This document shows, piece by piece, positions 18,571 through 43,754 of a stretch of DNA of 64,000 bases. Source of the stretch: Kofleriaceae bacterium (lineage in GTDB: Bacteria > Myxococcota_A > Polyangia > Haliangiales > Haliangiaceae); contig JBKJLC010000083.1 in the NCBI GenBank assembly GCA_046597055.1, positions 1-64,000 of the forward strand, in the 5' to 3' direction. Below the pieces are notes generated by a model. That model ran no database searches and was not told where the DNA came from. It worked only from the letters and a program-made list of their open reading frames with translations. Within the stretch, counting starts at the first letter, position 1, and each line of letters opens with the position of its first letter. The translations under genes were made by a program, and so were the position numbers.

Positions 18571-22962
<4,392 letters not shown>

Positions 22963-23849: not shown

Positions 23850-24998
23850 TTGCGGATCGAGTCCCTCACACTACCGTTCGGACGGGAGTATCTGGAAGCG
23901 CCGGTCACGCCGCGCCCGTCCGACCAGGCTCCCTCCCGCGCCCGCCGCCGCGGCCGCGCCAAGCTCGAGTCGGTCGCCCCGACGCCGCTCGAGGCCGCCA
24001 CCGTCGTCACCGCGCCCATCACTGCCACTGCCACTGCCACTGCCACTGCCACTGCCACTGCCGCTGCCGCTGCGGGTGCCGCTGCCGCGGCGGGTGCCGC
24101 TGCCGCTGCCGCGGCGGATGCGGGTGCGGCGGCCGCGGCCGCTGCCAATGCCGCGGCCGTCGCCACCCTCCGCCCCCAGGACGGCGTCTACGTCCTCGAC
24201 GTCGAGACCACCGGCACCGACCGCCGCCGCGACCAGGTCATCGAGCTCTGCATCCAGTTCGGCCTCGATGACCGCGCTCCCAGCCGCACCTGGCGCTTCA
24301 AGCCCTCGGTCGCGATGTCGCCCGGCGCCCAGGCGGTCCACGGCATCTCGATGGACGACCTCGCCGCCTGCCCGAGCTTCGCCGACTGCGTCGACGAGAT
24401 CGAAGCGATCTTCGCCGACGCCCGCGTGATCGTCGGCTACAACCTCACGTTCGACATCGACATGCTCCAGGCCGAGATGGAGCGCATCAAGCGGCCCTTG
24501 CTCGACGTCAGCGGCAAGACGATCGTCGATCCGTTCCGGCTCTGGCAGCAGTGCGAGCCGCGCAGCCTGCAGCACGCCCACCAGCGGTTCGTCGGGCAAG
24601 GCTTCGAGGCCGCGCACTCGGCCTCGGCCGACGTCGCCGCGACCGGCCGGGTCCTGTCGGGCATGCTGCGCAGCTTCAACCTCGACCACCACGACTGGAG
24701 CGCGATCGCCACGATCTGCGACCCGCAGCGGTCGAGCTGGGTGGGCCCGTCGCGGCATCTGCGCTGGGAGGGGACCACCATCATCCTCTCGTTCGGCAAG
24801 CACAGCGGCACCCCGCTCCACGAGCTCGACCGCGGCTACCTGCGCTGGGTCGCCGACAAGGACTTTCCGGTCCACGTGACCGTGATCTGCAAGAAGGCGC
24901 TCGAGCTCGCGCCTGACGAGCTGGTCGCGTGGGTGCGCCAGCAGTTCGGCGAGCCGGCCCCGACCGGCGCCCCGCCGTTCGCGGCGCCCGGCGGGTAG
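23850..24998 (+). CDS. DEDDh 3'-5' exonuclease (DnaQ/ExoX-like) with C-terminal FGKH domain
   Basis: LDVETTG, GYNLTFD, HSASADV; C-terminal LSFGKHSG..L...YLRW; start uncertain. Confidence 0.88.
   Translation: MRIESLTLPFGREYLEAPVTPRPSDQAPSRARRRGRAKLESVAPTPLEAATVVTAPITATATATATATATAAAAAGAAAAAGAAAAAAADAGAAAAAAANAAAVATLRPQDGVYVLDVETTGTDRRRDQVIELCIQFGLDDRAPSRTWRFKPSVAMSPGAQAVHGISMDDLAACPSFADCVDEIEAIFADARVIVGYNLTFDIDMLQAEMERIKRPLLDVSGKTIVDPFRLWQQCEPRSLQHAHQRFVGQGFEAAHSASADVAATGRVLSGMLRSFNLDHHDWSAIATICDPQRSSWVGPSRHLRWEGTTIILSFGKHSGTPLHELDRGYLRWVADKDFPVHVTVICKKALELAPDELVAWVRQQFGEPAPTGAPPFAAPGG
24021..24156 (+). repeat. In-frame hexamer low-complexity tract (ACTGCC x7 then GCTGCC/GCGGGT variants)
   Basis: Directly visible; encodes TATATATATATATAAAAAGAAAAAG. 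Confidence 0.9.
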
Positions 24999-25006
24999 CC
25001 AACCCG

Positions 25007-25453
25007 TCAGCGCGGGACCCGCGCCGCCAGCTCGTTCGCCGAGATCAGGCCTTCGACGCGCGCGCGCTCGGTGCCATCGGGCGTCAGGAACAGGACCGTC
25101 GGCGTTGCGTGCGCCGACCAGCGATCCTGGAAGGCGAGATCGTCCTCGTCGTTCTCGGTGACGTCGATCCGGACCCGCACCCAGCCTTCGAGCGCGGCCC
25201 GCACGGTCCGGGTCTGGTAGTGGCGAGCGAGCTCCTTGCATGGCGCGCACCAGCTCGCGGTCACGTCGACCATCACGCCTTTCGCGCCCCCCGCGCGGGC
25301 CCGTGCCAGCCCGTGCTCGAGGTCGGTCTCCCAGCGCGGCGCCACGATCGGGCCGGAGCCCGACGCCCGTGGACGAGCTGGAGCATCGCGATCGCATCCC
25401 GCGAGTAACATGGTGGCCGCGAGCACGACCCGGGCGAGCGATGCTGGCGTCAC
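25007..25453 (-). CDS. Thioredoxin-family lipoprotein
   Basis: LLAGC lipobox, TASWCAPCK, TPTVLF. Confidence 0.88.
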   Translation of the reverse strand: MTPASLARVVLAATMLLAGCDRDAPARPRASGSGPIVAPRWETDLEHGLARARAGGAKGVMVDVTASWCAPCKELARHYQTRTVRAALEGWVRVRIDVTENDEDDLAFQDRWSAHATPTVLFLTPDGTERARVEGLISANELAARVPR

Positions 25454-25998: not shown

Positions 25999-28900
25999 GT
26001 GACGACGCCGGCGCTCGAGCGATCGCTGCCGTCGGGGCTGGTGACGCTGGGGCCGGTGGTCGATGGCGGCGTGGTCGCGCACGGCGACGACGAGCAGGCC
26101 GAGCACGAGCTGCTGGGGTTCCTCGCCGAGCACCTGGCGACCCTGCCGCCGGCGCAGGCGGCGCGCTACTTCCTGCCCGAGGGCGTCGAGGTGATCACGG
26201 TGGAGGTCGCGCTGGATCCCGGCCTGCCGACCCGGCTGCGGCCGCCGCGCCTGGTCGGCGTGGCGTGCGTGGTGGTGCCGCACGGGGTCGGCGAGCGCAG
26301 CGAGGCGACCGGGGGTGGGGACCCTGCCAGCTTCGCTGGTGGGGCGGGGGGCAACCCTCCCGGTGGGATCGACCGGTGGGGCTTCGTGCCGGCGCTCGAC
26401 GCGTCGTTCTTCGTGCACCGGCGCGAGGACTTCCTCGAGGTCGCGCGCCGCGAGATCGCCCGGGTCGCCCGCGCCCGTGGGCTCGACGGCGATGACTGGC
26501 GGCGGGTGTTGCCCGCGCTCGATACCCAGGTGGTCCCGCTCGAGCTGACGGTGCGGTTCGCCGCGGCCACCGAGGCCACCGGCGATCGGCTGGCGGCCGA
26601 GCACAGGCGGGTCGCGGCCGAGGTCCTCGACGCGATCGCGGTGCGGCTGGCCGAGCGGGTGCGCGGCGGCGGCGTCGAGCTGGTCGGCCGCGACCGCGAG
26701 CTGGCGTCGCTCGACGCGCTGCTCGGTGGCCGCGATCGGCTGTCGGTGCTGCTGAGCGGCGACGAGGCGGTCGGCAAGACCGCGCTGGTGCTGGCCTGGG
26801 CGCGGCGCCACCCGGCCCGGCCGGCGTGGGTGACCTCGGTGGCCCAGCTGGTCGCCGGTGCCTCGGGCTTCGGCGAGGCCGAGGCCCGGATGCAGTCGAT
26901 CTTCGGCGCCGCCGAGGCGCTCGACGCGGTGCTGTACTTCGAGGACTTCGGCAGCCTGTTCCGCGAGCGGCCCGAGGAGGGCGGCCTCGACGTCGCCGCG
27001 GTGGTCCGCCGGAACATCGTCGAAGGCCGGGTCCGGGTGGTCGCCGAGATCACGCCGTTCGCGCTCGAGCGCGCCGAGCGTCGCGACGTCGGCCTGGTCG
27101 GCGCGATGACCCGGGTGCCGCTGGCGCCGATGACGCCGGCGCAGGCGCTGGTGGTCGCACGCGCCCACGCCACTCACTGGCGGCGGGCCGAGCCGCGCCG
27201 GCCGCAGCTCGCCGACGCGACGGTGGCGGTCGCGGTCGAGCTGGCGCGGCGCTACCTGCCGTACCGGATGTTCCCGGGCAAGGCGGTGCGGCTGCTCGAC
27301 GAGCTGCGATCCGCTCGCGACGGTGCGGTCGGGCTCGACGGCGCGCCACTCGAGCTCGGGCCCGAGGATGCCTACGAAGGGTTCTCGCTGGTCACCGGCA
27401 TTCCCACGTTTCTCCTGCGCGACGACCAGGCGATGCGGGTCGGCGAGCTGGTTGCCCGGCTGCGCACGCGCATGATCGGCCAGGACGTCGCGGTGCAGCG
27501 GGTCGCCGAGACGCTGTGCACGGTGAAGGCGCAGCTGCAGCCGGCCGACAAGCCGCTGGCGACCTTCCTGTTCGTGGGCCCCACCGGCGTCGGCAAGACC
27601 GAGCTGGCGCGCAGCCTCGCGCACCTGCTGTTCGGCGGCGAGGAGCGGCTGGTCCGCTTCGACATGAGCGAGTACGCCGATCCGTGGGCGGCCGAGCGGC
27701 TGATCCGCGGTTCCGGTGACGGCGACGGCCTCCTGACCTCGCGGGTGCGCGAGCAGCCGTTCTCGGTCGTGCTGCTCGACGAGATCGAGAAGGCGCACCC
27801 GGCGGTGCACGATCTGCTGCTCCAGGTCGCAGGCGAGGGCCGGCTCACCGATGCGCGCGGCCGCACCAGCTACTTCCACAACACGATCATCATCCTCACG
27901 TCGAACCTCGGCGCGCACCACGGCGGCGGCGCGGTCGGCCTGCGCGCGAGCAGCGGCGACGGACGCGAGCGCGAGCTCGGCCGCTATCAGGCGGCGGTCG
28001 CGACCGCCTTTCGGCCCGAGATGCTCAACCGCTTCGACGCGGTGATCGCCTTCCATCGCCTGAGCGAGGCCGAGGTCGCCGACGTCGCGTGCCTGCAGGT
28101 CGCCAGGCTGGCCGACCGGCGCGGGCTGGTCCAGGCCGCGGTCGGGCTCGACGTGAGCGAGCGAGCGCTTGCGGCGCTGGCGGTGGGCGGCTACTCGGCC
28201 GCGTACGGCGTGCGCGCGCTGCGCCGGCACCTCGATGAGCAGGTGGTGGCGCCGGCCGCGCGGCTGCTGGCCCGGGTCGGCAGCGAGGGCCACGGCGGGC
28301 TGCTCGCGGTGCGGGTCGACGGCGAGCCGGTCGGGCTCGGGCTGTCCGAGGGCTCGCACCTCGGCACCGTCGCGCCCGCCGCCGGGCCGGTCGAGGCTCC
28401 CGCGTTGCGGGTCAGCCTGTACCGGCGGGTCGGCGCCAGCGCGCGCCGCGGTGCCCAGGGCCTGACCCTGCTCGCCGAGGTCCGGCGGGAGGCCGACACC
28501 TGGCTCGCGCGCGATGTCGCCACCGAGGTGCGAGATCAGGTCAGCTGGCTCGAGGCGCAGCTGGCGCAGACCGACGAGTCGCGCGCTCGCGCGGGACGCG
28601 CGGGCCGGTCCCGGCGCGACGTCGGTGGCAAGGCGCGCAAGGAGGCGCTGTCGGCCGAGCAGCGCCAGCAGATGGCGACCGAGCTGCATCGGCTGCGGCG
28701 CGGCTGGGACGACGCCCACGCGGCGCGCGACGAGATCACCGCGGCCGAGGACCTCGGGCTCGAGGTCGCGCTCGCGGGCGGCGCGATCGAGGAGGTCGCG
28801 GCCATGGCCGGGCCGCTGGCGGCGCGGTTCGCGACCGCGATGTTCTGGCTGGCGGTGGCGCGGCTCGAGCAGCGCGACGCGATCACGCTGGCGCTGTCGG

Positions 28901-29496
28901 CGCCCGAGCTGTCGGTGCCGCTGGAGCGCTGGCTCGGCGCGCTCCTGGCCGAGGCCCCGGCCCGGCGCTGGACGATCACCGGGCACCTGACCGGCGTGCG
29001 CGACCCGGCGGTGGCGTGGCCGGAGTCGCGGGTGTGGGGGCCGCCGCGCTCGGCGGCGTGGCTGTCCGAGCGCCTCGCTGGCGAGGGCGGGATCCGCAAC
29101 GTGCTGCTGCGGGTCCGCGGCCCCGGCGCGGCGTGCCTGCTCGGCCTCGAGGCCGGCACCCATCGCTTCGTCGGCATCGCCAAGGTGAGCCCGTGCCACC
29201 TGGTGGTGCGGCGGATCGCCTTGACCGCCGACTTCGACGACGACGCCTGGCTGCGGGTCGGCGCGCTCGCGGCGCCGGCCCAGCCCGGCAAGGGCAACTT
29301 CGAGCGGCTCCATGCGGCGACCGACCACGTGATGGTCATGGGCCGCCGGGTCGAGGTGGCGTGGCCGCGCTACATGGCGCAGCTCGAGGAGGTCGGGCTG
29401 GCGCGGATCGCGCGCGCGCTCGCCGACGACGAGGCGGTCGCCGACCTGTACCCGATCGAGCTGACCGAGCCGGCCGCGCCCGAGACCGAGGCGTGA
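25999..29496 (+). CDS. ClpA/B-like double AAA+ ATPase 1 with C-terminal release-factor-like domain
   Basis: D1 GDEAVGKT / YFED / FPGKAVRLL; D2 GPTGVGKTE, RFDMSEY, LLDEIEKAH, FRPEMLNRFD, YGVRAL; C-terminal IRNVLLRVRGPGAACLLGLEAGTHRF. Start GTG 25999 is an estimate. Confidence 0.88.
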   Translation: MTTPALERSLPSGLVTLGPVVDGGVVAHGDDEQAEHELLGFLAEHLATLPPAQAARYFLPEGVEVITVEVALDPGLPTRLRPPRLVGVACVVVPHGVGERSEATGGGDPASFAGGAGGNPPGGIDRWGFVPALDASFFVHRREDFLEVARREIARVARARGLDGDDWRRVLPALDTQVVPLELTVRFAAATEATGDRLAAEHRRVAAEVLDAIAVRLAERVRGGGVELVGRDRELASLDALLGGRDRLSVLLSGDEAVGKTALVLAWARRHPARPAWVTSVAQLVAGASGFGEAEARMQSIFGAAEALDAVLYFEDFGSLFRERPEEGGLDVAAVVRRNIVEGRVRVVAEITPFALERAERRDVGLVGAMTRVPLAPMTPAQALVVARAHATHWRRAEPRRPQLADATVAVAVELARRYLPYRMFPGKAVRLLDELRSARDGAVGLDGAPLELGPEDAYEGFSLVTGIPTFLLRDDQAMRVGELVARLRTRMIGQDVAVQRVAETLCTVKAQLQPADKPLATFLFVGPTGVGKTELARSLAHLLFGGEERLVRFDMSEYADPWAAERLIRGSGDGDGLLTSRVREQPFSVVLLDEIEKAHPAVHDLLLQVAGEGRLTDARGRTSYFHNTIIILTSNLGAHHGGGAVGLRASSGDGRERELGRYQAAVATAFRPEMLNRFDAVIAFHRLSEAEVADVACLQVARLADRRGLVQAAVGLDVSERALAALAVGGYSAAYGVRALRRHLDEQVVAPAARLLARVGSEGHGGLLAVRVDGEPVGLGLSEGSHLGTVAPAAGPVEAPALRVSLYRRVGASARRGAQGLTLLAEVRREADTWLARDVATEVRDQVSWLEAQLAQTDESRARAGRAGRSRRDVGGKARKEALSAEQRQQMATELHRLRRGWDDAHAARDEITAAEDLGLEVALAGGAIEEVAAMAGPLAARFATAMFWLAVARLEQRDAITLALSAPELSVPLERWLGALLAEAPARRWTITGHLTGVRDPAVAWPESRVWGPPRSAAWLSERLAGEGGIRNVLLRVRGPGAACLLGLEAGTHRFVGIAKVSPCHLVVRRIALTADFDDDAWLRVGALAAPAQPGKGNFERLHAATDHVMVMGRRVEVAWPRYMAQLEEVGLARIARALADDEAVADLYPIELTEPAAPETEA
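26290..26367 (+). repeat. Palindromic REP-like insert inside Clp ATPase 1 coding sequence
   Basis: GAGCGCAGCGAG, then ACCGGGGG...CCTCCCGGT outer stem with inner CCAGC-TTC-GCTGG hairpin; atypical codons encoding ATGGGDPASFAGGAGGNPPGG. Confidence 0.55.
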
Positions 29497-32400
29497 GGCG
29501 CACGCTCGCGATCGCGGTCTACGAGCACCGGGTGGACTCCAAGGTCACCTGGTGGCCGCTGGTCCCGCGCGCGTGGGGCGGGCCGATCACCGGCACCAGC
29601 GAGGTCCGCATGCGCGAGGAGTTCGGCAAGCTGGTGCGCGAGGCGCTGCGCCTGGTCGATCCCGCCGAGCACGAGCTGTGGGACGCGCCGCCCGGCCTGC
29701 GCCTGCACCGGCTCCACCTCGATCTGGCGACCCAGGGCCCCAACCCGAAGCGGGTGGCCGGGTCGTTCCCGCTGATCCTCGAGCCGCGCTGGTTCACCGA
29801 CGAGCGGCAGCGGCTGCTCGCGTATCACCCGCGCGATCGGTCCGCGTGGTTCGACGCCGACGATCTTGCCGAGGCGGAGGTGCTGGCGCCCCACTTCGCC
29901 CGCAAGGCCTGGGCGGCGCTCGACGCCGACCAGCTCGAGGAGCTCAAGGTCACCGGCAAGGATCGCCTGCTGGTGGTGTCGTACAGCGTCGAGCCGACCT
30001 CGCTGCTCGATCGGCTCAAGCCCGAGGCGACCGAGCGCGGTCGCGCCGGCCTCGGCCGCGCCACCCGCCGGGTGCTCGGCGACCTCGCGGTCGACCAGAC
30101 CGCGCGCGCGATCGACCGGACCCTGCCGATCGGCGAGCCGCGCGAGCCGTATCGCGGCCAGCTCGGGCGCCTGCTCGGTGGCGACCGGCCGCGCTCGACC
30201 GTGCTGATCGGTCGTCCGGGATCCGGACGGTCGACCCTGCTCGCGCGCTGGGTCGACGATCGGCTGGCCGAGGATGGCTGGTTCCTGCACCGCAACGCCG
30301 ATCGCATCCACCGGGTGTGGCGGCTGTCGGGCAAGCGGCTGATCGCCGGCATGCAGTACTTCGGCGACTGGGAGGCGCGCTGTCTCGACGTGGCCGAGGA
30401 CGCGCGCAAGCACCGCGGGATCCTGTGGTTCGACGACCTCCACCTGTTCGGGAGGCTCGGCATCACCCGCCAGTCCGAGCGCAGCTTCGCCGACTTCTTC
30501 CGGGGCCCGGTCCAGCGCGGCGAGCTGGTGGTGATCGGCACCGCGACCCGCGAGCAGCTGGCGCGGCTCGAGGACGACGCGCCCGCGTTCGCCGGCCTGT
30601 TCACGCGGATCGCGATCGAGCCGACCACCGCCGAGCAGACCCGCGCGCTCCTGCTGGCCGAGGTTCGCCGGCTCGAGCGCGAACATCCGGTCGCGATCCA
30701 CCCGTTCGTGCCGCGCACGGTGGCCGAGCTGGCGTCGGCGCTGTGGGCGTGGACGGCGGCGCCCGGGGCCGCGGTCGAGCTGCTGCGCAAGCTGGTCGCG
30801 TGGCGGCTGGCGGCCCAGTCGACCGAGGAGGGCGGCGAGCGGCTCGAGATCGGCCCCCGCGACGCGGTCACCCTGGCCGCGCGCGAGACCGGCCTGCCCG
30901 AGCACCTGATCACCCTCGACCAGCCGCTCGACCCGGCCGCGGTCGAGGCCCACTTCGCGGCCCGCGTGATCGGTCAGGACGAGGCGGTCGCGGTCGCCAC
31001 CGAGGTGGTGCTCAAGGTCCGCGCCGGCCTGACCGACGCCAGCCGGCCGCTCGGCGTCTACCTGTTCACCGGGCCGACCGGCACCGGCAAGACCGAGCTG
31101 GCGACCGCGCTCGCCGAGTACCTCTACGGGGATCCGAAGCGGCTCCTGCGCTTCGACATGAGCGAGCTGTCGGGACCCGATGCGGTCGCGCGCCTCATCG
31201 GCGACCGGTTCGCGCCCGAGGGGCTCTTGACCCAGCGCATCCGCGAGCAGCCGTTCGCGGTCGTGCTGCTCGACGAGATCGAGAAGGCCCACCCGGCGGT
31301 GCTGGCGCTCTTGCTCCAGCTGTTCGACGAGGGCCGGCTCACCGACGCGGCGGGCGACGCGGCCAGCTTCCGCCACGCCGTGATCGTGATGACCTCGAAC
31401 CTCGGTGCCAAGGTGGCGGCGCCGATCGGCTTCGGCGACGGCGCCGCGGTGGTGATGGGCGACATCGCGCGCGCGGTGCGGGAGTTCTTCCCGCCCGAGC
31501 TGTGGAACCGCATCGATCAGGTCGTGCGGTTCCGGCCGCTCACGCCCGAGGTCGCGGCCCGGGTGGTCGACAAGGAGCTGGCCAAGCTGCTCGGCCGCCG
31601 CGGCCTGCGCGAGCGCAACGTGTTCGTCTACGCCGGGCGGGCGATCCGCGAGCGCGCGGTCGCGCAGGCGTTCGACAGTCGCTACGGCGCGCGCACGGTC
31701 AAGCGCTGGCTCGAGGACCACGTCGCGACCCGGCTGGCCGAGGCGCTCACCACCGCGCCGCCGGCCCGGATGACGGTCGCGCGCCTGCGCGAGGACGGCG
31801 CCACCGTCGGGGTCGACCTCGAGGTGCTGGCCGAGGTCGAGTCGCTGCCCGGCGACTACCCGATGGCCGAGCTGCGCGAGCTGTCGGCGTCGGCCCTGGT
31901 GCCGCACGCCGAGGCGATGGCCGACGAGATCGACCAGGTCCTGGCGAGCCGCGAGCTGATCGCGCAGGAGGAGGCCGCGCGCACCGGTCCGCGCGCCGCC
32001 GAGGTCCGCTACTACGCCGAGGGCTATCGCGACGAGCTGCTGCGGATGCGGACGATCCTGGTCGGGCAGGGGCCCCCGGCCCGCGCCGGGCGCACGCTCG
32101 AGGAGTCGGATGACGAGCTCACCCACGATCTCGAGGTCCACGATCGCGAGTCGGTGATCCACCAGTCCTCGTACCGGCGCGGCTACGTCGAGTCGAAGAT
32201 CCGCTTCGACCGGCGCAGCCTCGGCCGCGGCGCGCAGCGGTTCGATCAGCGGACCGGGCTCGAGGCGCTGGCGCGGGCGCGGCTCCTGATCGATCACGTC
32301 GGCGAGCTCGCCGATCCTGACGCTCACGTGGTGACGGTCGAGCTGGCCGCGGTCGGCCGCGGGGTGGCGAGCTGGAGCCTGGCCCGGGTGCTGGCGTCGC

Positions 32401-32882
32401 TGCCCCACGACGAACTGGCGGTCCGGACCCGGGATGGTCGGGTCACCACGACCACGCCGGTCGCCGGTGCCCACGTGGTCCACGCGGTGCTGGTGGTGCG
32501 CGAGCTGTTCGCCGCGCCGGCGCTGGTGGCCGAGCACGGCAGCCACGTGTTCCAGTCGCTCGCGGGCGAGCCCGAGATCGTGCGGGTGTCGGTCACGCCG
32601 GGGCCAGCCGAGCCGCGCGCGCGGGTGCGCGCGCACGAGGTGGCGCTGGCCGGCTTCGAGGCGGCGGTCGCGGCGGGCCAGCCCGGGATCAACCCCGAGC
32701 CGCTGTTGCCGGTGGTGCGGGTGCTGTCGATCGCGCCGGCGCCGCGCCCCGGTCAGCCGATGACGGTCGACGTCGAGGACTTCATCACCGGGTTCACCGG
32801 CCGGCTGTCGGTGCCCAACGAGCTGGCGGCGATCAACGGCTGCCGCGAGATCCGCTGGAGTCGGGTCGGAGGTCGGCGATGA
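29493..32882 (+). CDS. ClpA/B-like double AAA+ ATPase 2 with C-terminal release-factor-like domain
   Basis: GTGA overlap with gene 1; D1 GRPGSGRS / WFDD; D2 GPTGTGKTE, LLDEIEKAH, PIGFG, YGARTV; C-terminal AEHGSHVF...VVRV...VEDFITG. Confidence 0.88.
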   Translation: MRRTLAIAVYEHRVDSKVTWWPLVPRAWGGPITGTSEVRMREEFGKLVREALRLVDPAEHELWDAPPGLRLHRLHLDLATQGPNPKRVAGSFPLILEPRWFTDERQRLLAYHPRDRSAWFDADDLAEAEVLAPHFARKAWAALDADQLEELKVTGKDRLLVVSYSVEPTSLLDRLKPEATERGRAGLGRATRRVLGDLAVDQTARAIDRTLPIGEPREPYRGQLGRLLGGDRPRSTVLIGRPGSGRSTLLARWVDDRLAEDGWFLHRNADRIHRVWRLSGKRLIAGMQYFGDWEARCLDVAEDARKHRGILWFDDLHLFGRLGITRQSERSFADFFRGPVQRGELVVIGTATREQLARLEDDAPAFAGLFTRIAIEPTTAEQTRALLLAEVRRLEREHPVAIHPFVPRTVAELASALWAWTAAPGAAVELLRKLVAWRLAAQSTEEGGERLEIGPRDAVTLAARETGLPEHLITLDQPLDPAAVEAHFAARVIGQDEAVAVATEVVLKVRAGLTDASRPLGVYLFTGPTGTGKTELATALAEYLYGDPKRLLRFDMSELSGPDAVARLIGDRFAPEGLLTQRIREQPFAVVLLDEIEKAHPAVLALLLQLFDEGRLTDAAGDAASFRHAVIVMTSNLGAKVAAPIGFGDGAAVVMGDIARAVREFFPPELWNRIDQVVRFRPLTPEVAARVVDKELAKLLGRRGLRERNVFVYAGRAIRERAVAQAFDSRYGARTVKRWLEDHVATRLAEALTTAPPARMTVARLREDGATVGVDLEVLAEVESLPGDYPMAELRELSASALVPHAEAMADEIDQVLASRELIAQEEAARTGPRAAEVRYYAEGYRDELLRMRTILVGQGPPARAGRTLEESDDELTHDLEVHDRESVIHQSSYRRGYVESKIRFDRRSLGRGAQRFDQRTGLEALARARLLIDHVGELADPDAHVVTVELAAVGRGVASWSLARVLASLPHDELAVRTRDGRVTTTTPVAGAHVVHAVLVVRELFAAPALVAEHGSHVFQSLAGEPEIVRVSVTPGPAEPRARVRAHEVALAGFEAAVAAGQPGINPEPLLPVVRVLSIAPAPRPGQPMTVDVEDFITGFTGRLSVPNELAAINGCREIRWSRVGGRR

Positions 32883-35185
32883 CCCGGCCGAGCTTCCGCG
32901 TGTTCTTCACCGAGCACGACAACGGCAAGGTGTCGGGCGTCGTGATCCGCCGCCGCGAGCTGGTGTTCGACCCGCCGCCGCCGGCAGCGTGGGGCGACGG
33001 CCAGGACGACGTGCTGGCCGCGCTCGAGCCAGGCTTGACCGCCGCGGTCGCCGAGGACGGCCCGGGCCGCTACCTGTTCACCGAGGACCTCGAGCTGCGC
33101 CGGGTGGCGGTCGAGGTCCGGCCCCGGGTGGCCGCCGATGGCGCCTGGGTGCTCGGCAGCCGCACCATCCCGGTCCGGATCGGCTTCGCCGCGTTCGCCG
33201 AGGTCACCGCCGGCACCAGCGCCGGGCGGGCCGCGACCGACGGCGGCTTTCGCGTGCTGGTCCCGCGCCATCGCTGGTCGCTGGTGCTCGAGAGCCTCGA
33301 CGACGCCGCCGAGGTGCTGCGCCACGCGGTGTTCGCCGCGATGCTCGGCGACACGCCGGCGAGCGTGTTCGACTTCCGCGCCGGCGTCCGCGAGTGGATC
33401 GAGGTCTGGGAGCTGCCGCACCTGGCCGCGGCCGACGATGAGGCGCAGGAAGCCGAGCCGCCGCCGCCGCCGACCCTGGCCGCGGTCGCCGAGGACTGGA
33501 GCCGCAAGATCCAGCGCAAGCAGCTGGTGCCGCCGGTCGGCGATCCACCGGGCGCGACCGCGCTGGTGGTCGCGCTCGAGCGCACCCCACCACGCTCGGT
33601 GCTGCTGGTCGGCGACAGCGGGGTCGGCAAGACCGCGATCGTGCGCCGCGCCGCCAAGCACCTCGCCGAGCGGAGCAAGGGCAAGGACAGCGAGCCGCGG
33701 CGGCTGTGGGCGACCTCGGCCGGCCACGTCACCGCCGGCATGGTCTACCTCGGCATGTGGCAGGACCGTTGCCTCACGCTCGCGCGCGAGCTGTCAGCGA
33801 CCGAGGACTGGCTGTACGTCGATCGCCTGGTCGACCTGCTGGCGCCGCAGCCCGACGGCGCCAGCATCGCCGACCTCCTGGCCCCGGCGGTGGTCGCCGG
33901 CGAGCTGCGCATGATCGCCGAGGCGTCGGAGTCCGAGCTGGCCCGGTGCCGCCGCCGCAACCAGGCGTTCGTCGACGCGTTCGAGGTGATCCGCGTCGAC
34001 GAGCCCGGGCCCGACCAGGTGATCCCGATGCTGGTCACCCACCAGCACCGCAAGGACCCCGAGGTCACCTGGCACCCGGGCGCGCTGCGCCGCGCGATTG
34101 CGCTGCTCGCCGGGTTCCGCCGCGATCTGCGCTTTCCCGGCAAGGCGTTCGGCTTCCTCGACTGGTGGAACCAGGACGCGCACAAGCCGCCGCGCCAGGT
34201 GCGGCCCGGTGACGTCGCCGCCGCCTACGCCCGCTGGTCGGGCCTGCCGATCGAGCTCATCACCGACGAGCGCCCGACCGGGCCGGCCGAGATCGCGGCG
34301 GCGCTGCGCGCCGGCGTGGTCGGTCAAGACGCCGCGTGCGCGGTGGTCGCGCGGGCGCTGGCGCGCTTCAAGGTCGGCCTCGACGATCCCGAGCGACCGG
34401 TCGCCTCACTGCTGTTCGCCGGCCCGACCGGCGTCGGCAAGACCGAGCTCGCCAAGCAGATCGCGACCTACCTGTTCGGCGCCGGCGACCGCCTGGTCCG
34501 CATCGATCTGTCCGAGTACATGACGCCCGGCGCGGCCGGCCGTCTGCTCGAGGTCGGCAGCGGCGCGACCTCGCTCGCCGAGCAGGTCCGGCGCCAGCCG
34601 CTGTGCGTGGTCCTGCTCGACGAGATCGAGAAGGCGCACCCCGAGGTGTTCGACCTCCTGCTCGGCGTGCTCGGCGAGGGCCGGCTCACCGACACCATGG
34701 GTCGCCTGGTCGACTTCCGCATGGCGGTCATCGTGATGACCTCGAACCTCGGCGCCGGCGGCCGTGCCGCGCCCGGCTTCGGCGCGGACGCGCTCCCCGA
34801 CCACGCCGCCGCGGTCCGGGCCCACTTCCGGCCCGAGCTGATCGGTCGGCTCGATCACGTCGTGTCGTTCCGCAGCCTGTCACCGGCCGACATCGAGCGC
34901 ATCGTCGACCTCGAGCTGGCCAAGATCCGCCGCCGGCCCGGCCTCGTGCAGCGCGGCCTGACCCTGCGGCTGTCGACCCCGGCGCGCGCCTGGCTCGCGA
35001 GCCACGGCTTCGACGCCGGCATGGGCGCCCGACCCCTGCGCCGGCTGCTCGAGGAGGTCGTGGTCGCGCCGCTCGCCGTCCGCATGGCCGGCGATCCCGG
35101 CCTGCGCGACCGCCTGCTCGGCATCGTCACGGCCGGCGAGGCGGCCGGGGCCGGGGTGGACGAGCTGATCGTCCTGCCGGCGTGA
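32879..35185 (+). CDS. ClpA/B-like double AAA+ ATPase 3 (no C-terminal extension)
   Basis: ATGA overlap with gene 2; D1 GDSGVGKT / LYVDR / FPGKA; D2 GPTGVGKTE, LLDEIEKAH, FRPELIGRLD, MGARPL. Confidence 0.9.
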   Translation: MTRPSFRVFFTEHDNGKVSGVVIRRRELVFDPPPPAAWGDGQDDVLAALEPGLTAAVAEDGPGRYLFTEDLELRRVAVEVRPRVAADGAWVLGSRTIPVRIGFAAFAEVTAGTSAGRAATDGGFRVLVPRHRWSLVLESLDDAAEVLRHAVFAAMLGDTPASVFDFRAGVREWIEVWELPHLAAADDEAQEAEPPPPPTLAAVAEDWSRKIQRKQLVPPVGDPPGATALVVALERTPPRSVLLVGDSGVGKTAIVRRAAKHLAERSKGKDSEPRRLWATSAGHVTAGMVYLGMWQDRCLTLARELSATEDWLYVDRLVDLLAPQPDGASIADLLAPAVVAGELRMIAEASESELARCRRRNQAFVDAFEVIRVDEPGPDQVIPMLVTHQHRKDPEVTWHPGALRRAIALLAGFRRDLRFPGKAFGFLDWWNQDAHKPPRQVRPGDVAAAYARWSGLPIELITDERPTGPAEIAAALRAGVVGQDAACAVVARALARFKVGLDDPERPVASLLFAGPTGVGKTELAKQIATYLFGAGDRLVRIDLSEYMTPGAAGRLLEVGSGATSLAEQVRRQPLCVVLLDEIEKAHPEVFDLLLGVLGEGRLTDTMGRLVDFRMAVIVMTSNLGAGGRAAPGFGADALPDHAAAVRAHFRPELIGRLDHVVSFRSLSPADIERIVDLELAKIRRRPGLVQRGLTLRLSTPARAWLASHGFDAGMGARPLRRLLEEVVVAPLAVRMAGDPGLRDRLLGIVTAGEAAGAGVDELIVLPA

Positions 35186-35216
35186 GTGCCGGGCAGGCTC
35201 GCAGTACGTTGGTTCG

Positions 35217-35528
35217 ATGGAAGCGGACGACGAGCTCCCCGAGCTGCTCAAACGGGTTCGAAATCGGTCAACCTTCCTGGTGTTCGTTCGAGCACTCGAA
35301 CGGGATCGACGCGCGGCAGCCGAGCTGGAACGCGCCTCGCCGTCATCGCCGTACGGTCCCGGCGCCCGCGGCTGGGAGAACGGTACGATCGAGAGCTTTC
35401 TCGAGTCGGCGGTGGGCTGGGCCGAGGACGTGATGCCGCTCCGGGGCGCGCGAGCGGCCTGGTTTCCCGCTGCGCCCTCGTGGGCGGCGTTCGCGCGGTT
35501 TCTCTACATGGGCAAGCTCTACGAGTAG
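35217..35528 (+). CDS. Small conserved protein (WEN..I..FLE...W / PSW..FA..L..GK.YE type, DUF7660-like)
   Basis: GWENGTIESFLESAVGWAED and PSWAAFARFLYMGKLYE; family name from memory. Confidence 0.75.
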   Translation: MEADDELPELLKRVRNRSTFLVFVRALERDRRAAAELERASPSSPYGPGARGWENGTIESFLESAVGWAEDVMPLRGARAAWFPAAPSWAAFARFLYMGKLYE

Positions 35529-35977
35529 CCGGACGCCGACCTCGGTCAGAGGGGGCCCGCAGGGTTGAACCCATCTCGATGTGATCAAAGACGTCCCTCT
35601 TTTCCGGATTCTCTGAGCCGGTGCGAAGCGCCGTCGTCGGGCAGCGGGCAGCGGGCAGCCGGCAGCGGGCCGAGCATCGAGTTGCCCTCGAAGCCGTTCC
35701 TCTTTCCGGTCGCCATCCTGGGCGAGGCGGCGAACTCGTCGGGGAGATCGGCCCGGATCTCGGGCGGCTGGCGGAAGTCGCGGTGCCGCGTTGGCCTGCG
35801 AGAGTGGCGCGAGGGGCCACGGGTTCGGCCGGTCAGCAGCGCGATCAGAACGACCGCGGCCACCGCGGACACGTGCGCCTCCCGCGGGCCGGGCCAGGGA
35901 CGACCGCCGACGCATGGCAGGGCGCACGGGCCCGTGGTGGTGCCGGGATGCCGCCTGGCGCCAGCGACCGCGGTGGC

Positions 35978-36703
35978 CTATGGCGCGGGCCCCGGCACCT
36001 CGCGCGGATCGATCGGGCCGTGCCGTCGCCAGCCGACCCTGAGCAGCCAGCTCGAGGCCGGCACCACCGGTAGCGGCTCCCCGCCCATCGCGGCTCCTGA
36101 CGGCACGGTGCCCGGACGCCAGCCGTCGAAGCGGAGCCCGCTGGAGTACGGATCGACCTGGGCCCGGCGCTGGGCGCCGCCGCCGAGGTCCTCGCGATGC
36201 CGCCGCCAGTTGTTGATGACGTAGCAGAGCGCGTGACGTGCCTGCCGCGGCGTGCGGATGACCGTGACGTGATATCGCGACAGGAAGACCTGGCCGCGGT
36301 GTGGTCGCGCCAGCCGGCGGTCGCGCGTGATCGCCTGGTTGAGCAAGCGTGCCGCCGAGATCTCGAAACCCTGCATGCCGCGCGCGAGCGCGCGCTCGTC
36401 GTCGGCCTCGACCAGCAGGTGGACGTGATTGTGCTGGATGCTGATGTGCACGATGCGGAAGTCATGGCGCGGTAGCGTCGTGAGCATCGCGCGACGGAGC
36501 GCCTGGTAGGCACTGCGGCGGCGGAGCCGACCGACCTCGCGGCTCACCGCCAGGACGACATGGACCGGCTGGGCGGGCGTGATGGGCGCGCGCTTGCGGA
36601 CGCGCTGGTGCGGGCGTCGGCCGGCTGCGGGCTTGCGGCCGGCGCCGGGCCGGCGACCGCCGTGGGTCCGGAACTCGAGCGTGGTCTGCCGCGAGGCCGC
36701 CAT
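35978..36703 (-). mobile_element. REP-associated tyrosine transposase (RAYT, IS200/Y1 HUH family)
   Basis: HGGRRPGAGRKP N-terminus, PVHV, SIQHNHVHLLVEA (HUH), RYH, YVINNWRRH catalytic Tyr, DPYSSG. Confidence 0.88.
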
Positions 36704-36853
36704 TCTTGATTGCACCGATATTATCAGGTTGCTGGTTCTGGTCAATGAGCGATGGCAGGATCGCGAACAGCACGGTTTGGCCTCGATCGTGTGCACCCGG
36801 CAGGCCTTGTTCGGGGCGGCGTGCTGAGGTGGGCGGCATGGTGCTCGTGGCTG

Positions 36854-37022
36854 GGCTGTGGACTTGACGCGCCTGTGGAGAGCGCGCCTGCCGACGCGTG
36901 CGCCGCGAGCGGGCAGGGAGCGCCGGCGCGACCCCGCACAGGCGCTTGGAAAGCCGCGCCTTCGGGTCGTGGGCATGCGGAGTCGCGGTTGGTGGGCGCG
37001 CCTTTCCACAAGGCCCACAGCC
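36854..37022. other. Non-coding multi-stem palindromic element upstream of RAYT
   Basis: GGCTGTGG (36854) / CCACAGCC (37015); GCGCCTGTG (36869) / CACAGGCGC (36937); TGGAAAG (36947) / CTTTCCA (37002). Confidence 0.65.
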
Positions 37023-37153: not shown

Positions 37154-38622
<1,469 letters not shown>

Positions 38623-38626
<4 letters not shown>

Positions 38627-39807
38627 GCGACGTCGAGCTCCGCGCCGTCGAGGGTGATCACGTCGCCGGTGATGAGCTGGACCCGGCCGTGCGCGATCGC
38701 GGCGCCGCCGAGCTGGAGCGGCCCGGTGGCGCGGCCCAGGTGCGGTCGACCCGCGATGAACACGAGGTCGCACGCCAGGCCGTGGCTGGCGAGATCGATC
38801 CGGTCGCCGGGTCGCGCCAGCAGCAGGGTGCGGCCGCGGTCGAGCCCGTTGTTCGCGGTCAGGGTCAAGACCGGCGGCTCGCCGGCGACCGCGTAGTCGA
38901 TCCGGCAGTCCTCGCCGAGCTCGAGCTGGCCGTGATCGACCAGCGGCATCTTGCCGGCGATCGGCATGCCGCCGATCAGCGTGCCGTTGCGCGAGCCGGC
39001 GTCGCGCACGACGAACCGCGGCTGGTCACCGACCTCGACCTCGGCGTGGCGGCGGGAGACCCCGCCGGCCCGCAGCGGCAGATCGCACAGCGCGTCGCGG
39101 CCGAGCCCGATGACCGGCGCCGCGCACACGATGACCGGGCTGCCGGTGCGCGGGCGCAGCTCGACCCGCCCCGACGTGATCAGCCGCGCCTGCAGCTCGT
39201 CGAGCAGCCGCCGGTGCTCGCGGCTGGGCGCGCGGGCCAGCGCCGCCTCCAGCGCGAGCCGCGCGTCATCGCGCCGGCCCAGCCGCAGGTGGACCTCGTA
39301 GTCGGCGAACGCCTCACGCGCGGCGTGCTCGCTCGACGAGCGACGCTCGTCCTCGGCCATCGCGGTCTCCATCAGCTCGACGTGGCCGCCGTCCGAGTAG
39401 GCCTGGGCCGCGGCCGGGAAGTCGTCGAGGTGCTCGTAGGCCTTGCCGGCCTCGCGGTGCTCGCCGCCGGCGGTCAGCAGCGCGGCCGCTTCGCGCACCT
39501 TGTCGTGGTCGCGCCGGGTCGCGATGCCCTCGGCGAGCGCCTTGGCCAGGAGCGCGCGGCCGAGCGCGGCCGACGCCACCCGCCGTAGCTCGGCGTCGTC
39601 ACCGGCCCAGTGGATCGCGTCGCGCAGCGCGGTGATCTCGGCGGCGCGATCGTTGGCGCGGGCGGCGCGGGCCAGGTGCATGCGCACCGCCGACGGGAAG
39701 TCGCCGGCCAGCGCATAGTGCTGGGCGGCCGCGTCGAGGTTGCCGGCCGCCTCGGCGGCGCGCGCCGCGCGGTGGTCGGCGGACAGCCAGCGGCGGAAGC
39801 TGCTCAC
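38623..39807 (-). CDS. TPR-like + FHA domain protein
   Basis: LGRDALCD...GVSRRHA...DAGSRNGT FHA motifs; helical repeat N-terminus. Confidence 0.88.
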
Positions 39808-39830: not shown

Positions 39831-41189
<1,359 letters not shown>

Positions 41190-42195: not shown

Positions 42196-43754
42196 GCGCC
42201 GCCGCCGCGTCGTTCGCCCCGACCCGGCTCTGCACGCGCTGCGGCGCGACCCCGATCGGCGACAGCCGGGTGTGCCCGACCTGCGGCGCGCGCGTGGTCG
42301 AGATCCGCGCGCCCGAGGACGCGCTGATCGGCAAGGTGATCGACGAGCGCTTCGAGATCCGCTCGGTGCTGGGGCAGGGCGGCATGGGCACGGTCTACCG
42401 CGCGCATCAGCGCTCGGTCGATCGCGAGGTCGCGGTCAAGCTGATCGATCCGCGGCTCGCGCGCGAGGTGACCGCGGTCCGCCGCTTCCTGCGCGAGGCC
42501 AAGCTGGCCAGCCAGCTGTCGCAGCCCAACACGGTCAGCGTGTTCGATTTCGGCCAGAGCGCCGACGGCTATCTCTACCTGGTCATGGAGCTGCTCGACG
42601 GGCGCACGCTCGGCACCGTGATCCGCGAGGACGGGCCGTTCCCGCTGGCGCGCGCGGTGCGGGTCGGCGTGCAGCTGTGCGATGCACTCGAGGCCGCCCA
42701 CCAGCTCGGCATCATCCACCGCGATCTCAAGCCCGGCAACGTGCTGGTCCTGCGCCATCCGCCCGGCCGCGATCTGGTGAAGGTGCTCGACTTCGGCCTC
42801 GCCAAGTCGGTGCTCACCGAGGGTGAGGACATCACCGAGTCCGGCCACGTGGTCGGCACGCCGCGCTATCTCGCGCCCGAGCAGCTCGCCGGGCGGCCGC
42901 CCGATCGCAAGGTCGATCTGTACGCGGTCGGCGTGATCCTCGCCGAGGTGACCATGGGCCGCTCGCTGTTCGTCGGCGACGCGCTCGGCGCGCTGCTGCT
43001 CGAGAAGCGCGATCCGCCCCCGCTGCCGGTCGAGGTGCCCGCGGCGCTGCGGCCGATCGTCATGCGGTTGATCGAGCCGGATCCCGAGCTGCGGCTGGGC
43101 GATGCGGCCGAGCTGCGCGAGGCGCTCGGCGCGCTCGGCGCGTTCGATGGGGCGCGGACGCCGCCGCGGGCGCGGCCGCCGGTGGCCGCGTCGGAGATCC
43201 CGGACGGGATGGGGACGCCGGCGACCAGCTTGATCCTCGAGATCATGCAGACGAGCGAGACCGAGGTGAGCATGCCGTCGGTCAGCACGCCGACCCCGGC
43301 GACGGCGGTGTCGGTGACGGTGCCGGCCGGGGCGGGCGCATCGGCAGCGGCATCGGCAGCGGCAGCGCGGCGGACCCGGGTGATCGGGATCGTGCTCGGG
43401 CTGGCGGCGATCGCCGCGGCCAGCGTCGTCGTGCTGTCGCGCGGGCCTGCGGACCGTGCCGGCCTGACGCCGGAGCGTGCCGGTGTGCGGCCGGATCCGG
43501 CGCCGGTGCCCGCGATGGTGGACGCGGCGGCCGAACCCGATGCAGCGCCGGCCGCGGCCGAGCCGCCACCGGCTGATGCACCGCCCGCGACCGGACGCCC
43601 GCCGGACGCACCGCGAGCGCCCGCCTCGGACCGGCCGACGCCGCGGCGCACGCCGCGGGTCAAGCCGCCGCCGCCGACCGAGCGGCCAGGCCCGACCTCG
43701 CCGACCGATCGGTGCAAGCGCACGCCGCGGCCGCCCGAGTGTCCGCCGTTCTGA
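42192..43754 (+). CDS. Membrane Ser/Thr protein kinase with N-terminal zinc ribbon
   Basis: CTRC...CPTC, LGQGGMG, HRDLKPGN, DFGLA, TM helix, Pro-rich tail; GTGA overlap. Confidence 0.92.
   Translation: MSAAAASFAPTRLCTRCGATPIGDSRVCPTCGARVVEIRAPEDALIGKVIDERFEIRSVLGQGGMGTVYRAHQRSVDREVAVKLIDPRLAREVTAVRRFLREAKLASQLSQPNTVSVFDFGQSADGYLYLVMELLDGRTLGTVIREDGPFPLARAVRVGVQLCDALEAAHQLGIIHRDLKPGNVLVLRHPPGRDLVKVLDFGLAKSVLTEGEDITESGHVVGTPRYLAPEQLAGRPPDRKVDLYAVGVILAEVTMGRSLFVGDALGALLLEKRDPPPLPVEVPAALRPIVMRLIEPDPELRLGDAAELREALGALGAFDGARTPPRARPPVAASEIPDGMGTPATSLILEIMQTSETEVSMPSVSTPTPATAVSVTVPAGAGASAAASAAAARRTRVIGIVLGLAAIAAASVVVLSRGPADRAGLTPERAGVRPDPAPVPAMVDAAAEPDAAPAAAEPPPADAPPATGRPPDAPRAPASDRPTPRRTPRVKPPPPTERPGPTSPTDRCKRTPRPPECPPF

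Follow-up and report, generated by a model that had tools for sequence, protein, structure and literature searches.

Predicted release factor-like C-terminal modules without a GGQ domain on two Clp-like ATPases of a three-gene cassette from a Kofleriaceae bacterium

Why would a Clp-like ATPase end in a domain that resembles a peptide chain release factor? This question is raised by three consecutive genes, called g1, g2 and g3 here, in a stretch of 64,000 nucleotides from a Kofleriaceae bacterium (assembly GCA_046597055.1, contig JBKJLC010000083.1, positions 1 to 64,000), which is referred to below as the window. Open reading frame (ORF) lists and the profile of G+C content at third codon positions (GC3) placed all three on the + strand. 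The genes are paralogous, each encoding a Clp-like protein with two AAA+ modules. A sequence-only reading of the window had proposed that the C-terminal tails of g1 and g2 are release factor (RF)-like and hydrolysis-dead, and this proposal was borne out in that class I RFs were the only strong structural matches for both tails. Together, the analyses described below show the g1 and g2 tails to be a module descended from a bacterial class I RF, devoid of the GGQ domain and of the PxT/SPF tripeptide, as judged from predicted fold and family profile for g1 and from predicted fold for g2.

The g1 tail comprises the 406 amino acids (aa) following the D2-small domain. HMMER identified homologs of this tail in 139 representative clusters, mostly proteins of 1100-1190 aa in which the match was located at the C-terminus. 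The g1-family alignment (A1) was composed of the query and the best 83 of the 139 hits (84 rows), and an RF reference profile was built from 31 RF1/RF2 sequences from genomes of the same phylum. Comparison of the two by hhalign produced a collinear match over 240 columns that covered RF domains 1 and 2 (probability 94.7, E 6.4e-8) and placed residues 70-196 of the g1 tail on residues 2-105 of RF1. Within the 84 rows, G294 was invariant, and E292, H296, G282, E158 and R344 were conserved in at least 90%. No match to the g1 tail was found in the PDB by sequence.

Both tails were modelled with AlphaFold2 without templates. The g1 tail model had a mean predicted local distance difference test (pLDDT) value of 92.7 and a predicted template modelling score of 0.87. 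Foldseek returned 38 PDB matches to it at E ≤ 1e-3, and all 36 that were listed were class I RFs (RF1, RF2 and mtRF1). A VIA-align search of the same model placed 41 RF entries at the top, with Z scores of 10.8-13.2. Residues 197-387 of the model were superimposed on RF1 residues ~104-354 with 141-161 aligned residues, a root-mean-square deviation (rmsd) of 3.0-3.6 Å and Z scores of 11-13, an alignment that included domains 2 and 4 and skipped domain 3. In the whole-chain alignment to RF2/RF1, model residues 57-391 corresponded to chain residues 4-365, and the helices at 57-196 overlay RF domain 1. In the rows below the RFs (Z 8.9-9.9) only the long helices were matched, and PrfH was found at Z 8.5-8.8.

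The g2 tail model, with a pLDDT of 82.7 overall and below 50 at residues 110-159, led to the same group of proteins. All 26 listed of the 28 Foldseek matches at E ≤ 1e-3 were RFs, and VIA-align ranked 41 RF entries at Z 10.1-11.9, followed by an RF2 fragment (7.5) and PrfH (6.8 and 6.5); the best-placed unrelated chain scored 5.8. Residues 179-375 were superimposed on RF1 residues ~100-354 (130-146 residues, rmsd 2.8-3.6), and in the alignment to 1gqe, model residues 43-371 corresponded to chain residues 5-364. A scan of 48,161 representative chains that was independent of Foldseek ranked RF1, mtRF1, RF1 and RF2 as the top four (Z 10.7-11.9); below these were helical-bundle matches to the helical part of the g2 tail only. 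In the g2 family (20 sequences), E260, H261, G262 and H264 were invariant. A complex prediction for the two tails returned no answer (score 0.00), a result that is uninformative in either direction.

In both models domain 1 is followed by domain 2/4, which is the RF order, and according to the secondary structure of the models a linker of ~30-40 residues stands where RF domain 3 would be. The GGQ tripeptide is absent from g1, g2 and g3; a string search thus agreed with the earlier statement that neither C-terminus contains it. No match to PF00472 (RF-1) was found in g1 or g2. GGQ did occur in 6 of the 84 g1-family rows and in 1 of the 20 g2-family rows, at scattered and non-homologous columns, and an RF-1 Pfam scan of these seven proteins and one other gave no match. 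Because domain 3 and GGQ have been lost, the tails are considered hydrolysis-dead. The most conserved 15-residue window in both families is the E-x-G-x-H block, with a mean top-residue frequency of 0.70 in the g1 family and 0.85 in the g2 family, and therefore the decoding locus is still a hot spot of constraint. The g1-family motif W-P-x-x-R-x-W-G-P-P-R is conserved and is absent from RFs.

All ten motifs that the sequence-only reading had quoted were located at the coordinates and in the frames given there: DAITLALSA (28876-28902), ERWLGALL (28924-28947), RRWTI (28963-28977) and GIRNV...GLEAGTHRF (29089-29169) in g1, and HVVTVEL (32325-32345), HAVLV...EHGSHVF (32481-32552), VRVSV (32580-32594), PVVRV (32709-32723) and VEDFITG (32772-32792) in g2. 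Two boundaries had to be moved. The g1 module had been placed from 28860, and its helical, domain-1-like part begins at ~28435; g2 had been started at 29016, and its true start is the GTG at 29493.

Independent evidence for a link between Clp-like ATPases and RFs came from a Pfam PCRF scan of the phylum, which identified a fusion protein in genome G005 (L059) consisting of a degenerate AAA+ module, ClpB_D2-small and a full-length degenerate RF. Its tail scored 61.7 bits on PCRF, above the Pfam cut-off, and all four domains could be aligned with RF1/RF2, although GGP stands at the position of GGQ and the loop of the tripeptide is shorter. A search with this tail matched the ordinary RF genes of 392 of the 401 sampled genomes, with listed E values of ~1e-13 to 1e-19 and per-genome best values up to 5e-4. 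L059 shows that entire RFs have become joined to Clp-like ATPases and decayed afterwards. The decay of a fused RF seems to be represented at an earlier stage by L059 (GGP, domain 3 present) and at a later one by the g1 and g2 tails (domain 3 excised). The L059 gene is a single gene, not a triad; its type appears rare, being present in 1 of the 401 sampled genomes, and no further fusion of this type was found among 8000 word-sharing candidates or in the 401 genomes. Searches with the tail profiles of g1 and g2 miss the L059 protein. Its gene neighbors are unrelated (Thi4, GH43, DUF2804 and an M16 peptidase-like protein). Two other candidates for RF fusions, L076 and L079, were rejected as ordinary prfB genes whose 713-aa frames are consistent with high-GC read-through; in both, a second overlapping frame carries GGQ, which fits the usual prfB frameshift.

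Coordinates of the features are collected in Table 1.

Table 1. Genes, domains and motifs of the g1-g2-g3 cassette, with the fusion gene from genome G005. Positions refer to the window except for L059.
Feature	Position	Strand	Basis
g1, Clp-like double-AAA+ protein with RF-like tail, 1165 aa	25999..29496	+	GC3 frame, gene call P0163, Pfam
g1 N domain, ~200 aa	25999..26650	+	related to g2 and g3 N domains by hhalign
g1 D1 AAA+ module, Walker B degenerate	26677..27312	+	AAA_16 and AAA_lid_9 matches
g1 D2 AAA+ module and D2-small	27550..28272	+	AAA_2 E 1.1e-38, ClpB_D2-small
g1 RF domain-1-like helical arm	28435..28863	+	model helices 54-193
g1 RF domain-2/4-like alpha/beta domain, short linker in place of domain 3	28864..29448	+	model 197-387 on RF1
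g1 E-x-G-x-H-R motif GLEAGTHRF	29143..29169	+	string located in frame
g2, Clp-like double-AAA+ protein with second, diverged RF-like tail, 1129 aa	29493..32882	+	GTG start, GC3, P0004, Pfam
g2 D2 AAA+ module and D2-small	31044..31751	+	AAA_2 E 3.8e-39, ClpB_D2-small
g2 RF domain-1-like helices, disordered insertion ~32082-32231	31860..32294	+	model helices 36-103, 165-180
g2 RF domain-2/4-like alpha/beta domain	32295..32879	+	model 179-375 on RF1
g2 conserved block ending E-H-G-S-H-V-F	32481..32552	+	string located in frame
g3, third paralog, 768 aa, no RF-like tail, stops right after D2-small	32879..35185	+	ATG overlaps TGA of g2
L059 fusion, 922 aa: degenerate AAA+, ClpB_D2-small, full-length degenerate RF	L059:5857-8622	-	genome G005, Pfam PCRF scan of phylum

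The three genes form a translationally coupled set and overlap at both junctions, each by a start/stop overlap of 4 nucleotides. The ORF of g1 is open from 25240, the GC3 coding signal is present only from ~25700, and the start was set at 25999 because public gene call P0163 is 1165 aa long. The GTG start of g2 overlaps the TGA of g1 at a point where the GC3 profile shows a frame switch, and public protein P0004 is 100% identical to g2. In g3, the AAA_2 and ClpB_D2-small matches end at residue 736, and orthologs of equal length were found in 11 of 12 loci. The public records retrieved for these proteins name them only 'AAA family ATPase' or 'ClpC'. The host genome has normal prfA, prfB and clpB genes elsewhere and one clpP gene, on another contig. 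The window has ~74% G+C, and the named relatives of its proteins are from Kofleriaceae, Myxococcales and Polyangiales metagenome bins. Rfam and promoter/terminator scans gave no useful match.

The ATPase bodies provide the motor to which the tails are attached. Pfam identified D2 in all three proteins as AAA_2 (E ~1e-38 to 6e-39), together with ClpB_D2-small above cut-off and a weaker D1 module, so that g1, g2 and g3 have the Clp/Hsp100 class 1 architecture of two AAA+ modules with an AAA_2-type D2 and ClpB_D2-small. The best NCBIfam matches were ClpA and ClpB. Bit scores on ClpA (TIGR02639) and ClpB (TIGR03346) were 296.7 and 278.5 for g1, 276.8 and 294.2 for g2, and 331.3 and 299.9 for g3, far under the equivalog cut-offs of 1232 and 993, respectively. 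The N domains, ~200 aa each, had no Pfam match at E ≤ 10 and are distantly related among themselves by hhalign (g1 against g2, E 5.5e-5; g1 against g3, 6.7e-6; the remaining pair, 3.6e-3); an ESM Atlas search with the g3 N domain gave scores of 0.75-0.76 at most.

Motifs were compared by alignment to the genome's own ClpB, using 35 orthologs from 13 genomes and excluding the g1 and g2 genes of locus L052, which look split or rearranged. The position of the ClpB M-domain is a gap in g1, g2 and g3 of the window, the three proteins for which this was compared. D1 of g1 retains the Walker A GK[ST], has lost the Walker B D-E pair and has another residue in place of the pore-loop Tyr. Most orthologs keep D1 Walker A; in the g2 proteins of the window and its closest relative, Arg stands in place of Lys. 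The pore-loop Tyr was found in 1 of 12 g1, 8 of 11 g2 and 12 of 12 g3 proteins. Because the catalytic Walker B Glu is absent, the D1 modules are predicted to bind ATP but probably not to hydrolyze it. In D2 of g1, Walker A and B, sensor-1 and the Arg-finger region are intact, the GYVG pore loop is deleted, and a V-G-L loop follows sensor-1. All 35 orthologs have intact Walker A and Walker B motifs in D2, nearly all conserve sensor-1 and the Arg-finger region, and in 35/35 an x-G-[F/L/I] motif is found in an insertion after sensor-1. In g2 this loop is P-I-G-F-G-D, nearly invariant in 20 sequences. The loop after sensor-1 is presumably the site of the ClpP-docking tripeptide in ClpA/ClpC.

The order g1-g2-g3 was kept in 11 of 12 other genomes; the remaining locus, L056, has a g1-type gene alone. 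In a maximum likelihood tree built from 714 well-occupied columns, with the genome's own ClpB as the only outgroup, each paralog formed one clade (g1, 12/12, support 0.50; g2, 11/11, support 1.0; g3, 12/12, support 1.0), g1 and g3 were sisters, and sister pairs recurred in parallel over the three clades. These paralog clades with parallel branching indicate an old triplication followed by co-divergence of the three genes. On the ClpB rooting, the sequences are most simply explained if g3 lost its tail. At locus L058, the gene at the g2 position belongs to the g2 clade and its tail is missed by the g2 tail profile. At L052 (G175:C119, 1543-6503), the g1 N domain is in a separate ORF, the g1 tail breaks off at profile position 269 and the g2 ORF comprises only 753 aa; this locus may represent either decay of the cassette or an error in the assembly.

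How might such proteins work? Fold and conservation suggest a putative mixed-ring motor with RF-derived arms that dock at the ribosome, to which we give a probability of roughly 45%. In this motor, g1, g2 and g3 would assemble into one mixed ring, and the arms would enter the ribosomal factor-binding site and A site in the manner of an RF, by means of the geometry of domains 1 and 2/4. Instead of a stop codon, the arms would recognize some other state of the A site, for example a vacant, stalled or damaged one, and they would be unable to release the peptide. The ring, driven by ATP hydrolysis in D2, would then remodel the ribosome to which it is bound, or a factor trapped on it; possible results are splitting, eviction, or transfer to ClpP by way of the conserved x-G-F/L loops. 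The logic of such a motor, by analogy, resembles that of Pelota-ABCE1 or Vms1-Cdc48, with bacterial parts. Docking at the ribosome is favored because domains 1 and 2/4 are kept in RF order and the constraint sits at the decoding locus, and because the motor is joined to the RF N-terminus, which we take to point out of the ribosome in RF-ribosome structures, and PrfH is a precedent for an RF recognition domain that has been retuned to an A-site state without a codon signal. To our knowledge, the domain 2/4 fold of class I RFs is found elsewhere only in ribosome-binding (A-site) release factors and in PrfH. The conservation of the three genes together over a class strengthens the proposed coupling of A-site recognition to mechanical work.

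Several results weigh against ribosome docking by such a motor, beginning with the sequence of the g2 tail. The g2 family did not match the RF profile significantly (hhalign, E 0.18). Between the g2 and g1 tails a BLASTP search was empty and hhalign gave E 0.072 over 27 columns around E-x-G-x-H. Because its sequence link to RFs is not significant, the RF assignment of g2 relies on predicted structure. The stop-codon reading elements have also been lost: PxT/SPF after E-x-G-x-H is present in 31/31 RFs and in 2/84 g1-family and 0/20 g2-family sequences, the recognition loop after E-x-G-x-H is shorter than in RFs and poorly conserved, and the GTGG-E helix tip is not kept. The net charge of the domain 2/4-like part has a median of -4 and -6 in the two families and of -1 in RFs, which does not point to an enhanced RNA-binding surface. 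In the motor, the D1 Walker B D-E pair is present in 0/35 orthologs and the D2 GYVG pore loop has been lost through a deletion of 5-6 residues in 35/35. Canonical Clp unfoldases thread with the D2 GYVG pore loop; its deletion, and the absence of the catalytic Walker B Glu from D1, make classic threading doubtful. Finally, the spread of g1-tail homologs is patchy: of the 401 genomes sampled from the phylum, 13 have one, and 11 of these 13 belong to the same class. In most loci no translation genes flank the cassette.

The sequence data on g2 raise the possibility that the likeness is spurious, that is, that the predicted models contain an alpha/beta fold that resembles RFs by convergence or chance, with no descent from them. 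The structures are predictions, and the Pfam PCRF match of the g1 tail alone (E 0.025; 14.8 bits, tail residues 267-301 on profile positions 144-178) is below the cut-off of 24 bits; PCRF had no match to the g2 tail at E ≤ 10, and the search of the PDB with the g2 tail sequence gave one chance match (E 3.1). The comparison with PCRF and RF structures proposed in the sequence-only reading succeeded for the fold of both tails and the g1 family profile, and failed for the g2 profile and for PCRF on single sequences. The 240 collinear columns shared by the g1 family and RFs, the two independent structure searches in which no competing fold was found for the alpha/beta domain, and the related architecture of L059, with its PCRF match over the curated cut-off, all speak for descent from an RF, and a spurious likeness is already disfavored and considered very improbable.

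The loss of the stop-codon reading elements is also what would be expected if the RF module had been exapted as a scaffold and works off ribosomes, as an assembly, auto-regulatory or substrate/adaptor-binding domain of a three-subunit Clp machine that handles ordinary clients and is possibly coupled to ClpP. This explanation, which we consider possible but less likely, is consistent with the W-P-x-x-R-x-W-G-P-P-R motif of g1 as a family-specific feature, with the x-G-F/L loops, presumably similar to those used for ClpP docking, in all 35 orthologs, and with the scarcity of translation genes nearby. It does not readily account for two long-diverged paralogs having kept domains 1 and 2/4 in RF order, for the strongest conservation lying exactly on the strand beside the RF decoding loop, or for every strong fold match being an RF or PrfH, ribosome-binding proteins outside of which the domain 2/4 fold is not known to occur.

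The patchy distribution might alternatively reflect a conflict system, in which the gutted RF would be a decoy or sensor, a bait for a phage or competitor factor aimed at RFs or the A site, and binding of this factor would activate the AAA+ ATPase; the sequence-only reading had offered a decoy or sensor as its alternative. The cassette is self-contained and its neighborhoods vary, and paralog expansion is frequent among defence ATPases. PADLOC reported similarity to PDC-M37B, DolB, IetA, mad8 and TRIP13, although this similarity is generic to AAA+ proteins and no defence-specific model was matched beyond the AAA+ core. Moreover, a Pfam search detected no effector domain (nuclease, protease or pore) in g1, g2 or g3, the flanks contain housekeeping and regulatory genes without recurring defence, integrase or toxin genes, and the parallel branching of the paralogs suggests mostly vertical descent within the class. 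A decoy or sensor function is therefore regarded as unlikely.

The neighborhood of the cassette is not conserved. The 39 flanking ORFs that were scanned have unrelated functions with no recurring neighbor, and no ORF of at least 150 aa beside the cassette was common to three or more of the 12 loci. At one locus, in genome G355, an RtcB RNA ligase gene (L054:3-686, +) ends ~2.3 kb 5' of the cassette, with one 434-aa ORF on the opposite strand between them; this proximity may be a coincidence because it was found in only 1 of 12 loci. In the window, an RNase_T-family exonuclease gene with a QSregVF_b-like tail (23850-24998, +) and a thioredoxin-like gene (25007-25453, -) are located just 5' of g1, and the exonuclease neighbor recurs solely in a genome of the same genus (L047). 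About 0.8 kb 3' of g3, where the coding signal is weak (35200-37000), is an ORF (35978-37018, -) that encodes a Y1 transposase domain of the IS200-like type (PF01797, E 3.1e-8). Signalling genes around the cassette (18571-22962, -; 37154-38773, -; 38623-39807, -; 39831-41189, -; and 42201-43754, +) encode a 1463-aa Ser/Thr kinase with AAA_16 and TPR repeats, two more Ser/Thr kinases, an FHA protein and an FHA-sigma54 activator. Such a dense signalling neighborhood is usual in myxobacteria and is not kept beside the cassette in other genomes.

RF domains without the hydrolase, fused to a Clp-type motor, point to an undescribed coupling of A-site recognition and mechanical work. If the tails bind ribosomes, they could be part of a new bacterial pathway of rescue, quality control or ribosome turnover, and would be a natural case in which the recognition domain of an RF has been retuned to a signal other than a codon. 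The G005 fusion and the g1 and g2 tails, taken as a decay series, also bear on the evolution of RFs. Stated in full, and held only tentatively, the proposal is that of a hetero-oligomeric Clp motor whose gutted-RF arms would probe the A site, with ATP-driven splitting or stripping of the ribosome or feeding of ClpP, a bacterial, RF-derived counterpart of Pelota-ABCE1 or Vms1-Cdc48 that would provide a new rescue or quality-control route.

Comparison with known systems defines what is shared and what differs. The three proteins are like ClpA, ClpC and ClpB in having two AAA+ modules, an AAA_2-type D2 with D2-small and an x-G-F/L loop after sensor-1, presumably at the position of ClpP docking, but they lack Clp_N and the ClpB M-domain, their D1 Walker B has degenerated and GYVG is missing from D2 by deletion; moreover, there are three obligate paralogs, two of which carry RF-derived tails. 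The tails are like class I RFs (RF1/RF2; PrfA/PrfB; PCRF PF03462 and RF-1 PF00472) in domain order, in the conserved E-x-G-x-H-R strand and in fold, but they are attached to ~750 aa of protein that contain two AAA+ modules, and with no domain 3 or GGQ they are predicted to be incapable of peptidyl-tRNA hydrolysis. L059 is similar in that a Clp-like AAA+ protein has an RF-derived C-terminus without the catalytic Gln and the tripeptide loop.

PrfH is an RF homolog that works with RtcB on damaged ribosomes. PrfH (PDB 7sa4 and 9mor; Z 6.5-8.8) is like the tails in being RF-derived with a recognition domain that does not read stop codons. The tails differ in that they keep domain 1 and lack the catalytic domain, with RtcB near the cassette in 1 of 12 loci, whereas PrfH has no domain 1 and has retained the catalytic domain, as stated in a survey of release-factor evolution centred on the hydrolase domain (PMC6514570). 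The passages of this survey that were found by term search mention neither a Clp fusion nor a codon-recognition domain without the hydrolase, and its supplementary lists might include such architectures. Full-text literature searches found no description of a fusion between a Clp or other AAA+ protein and an RF.

The comparison with Pelota/Dom34-ABCE1 and Vms1-Cdc48, which act in archaeal and eukaryotic ribosome rescue, is one of functional analogy only, and no homology is claimed. Pelota and Vms1 have the unrelated eRF1 fold and bind their ATPase non-covalently, whereas in g1 and g2 a module of the bacterial RF type is fused covalently to a Clp-type AAA+ motor.

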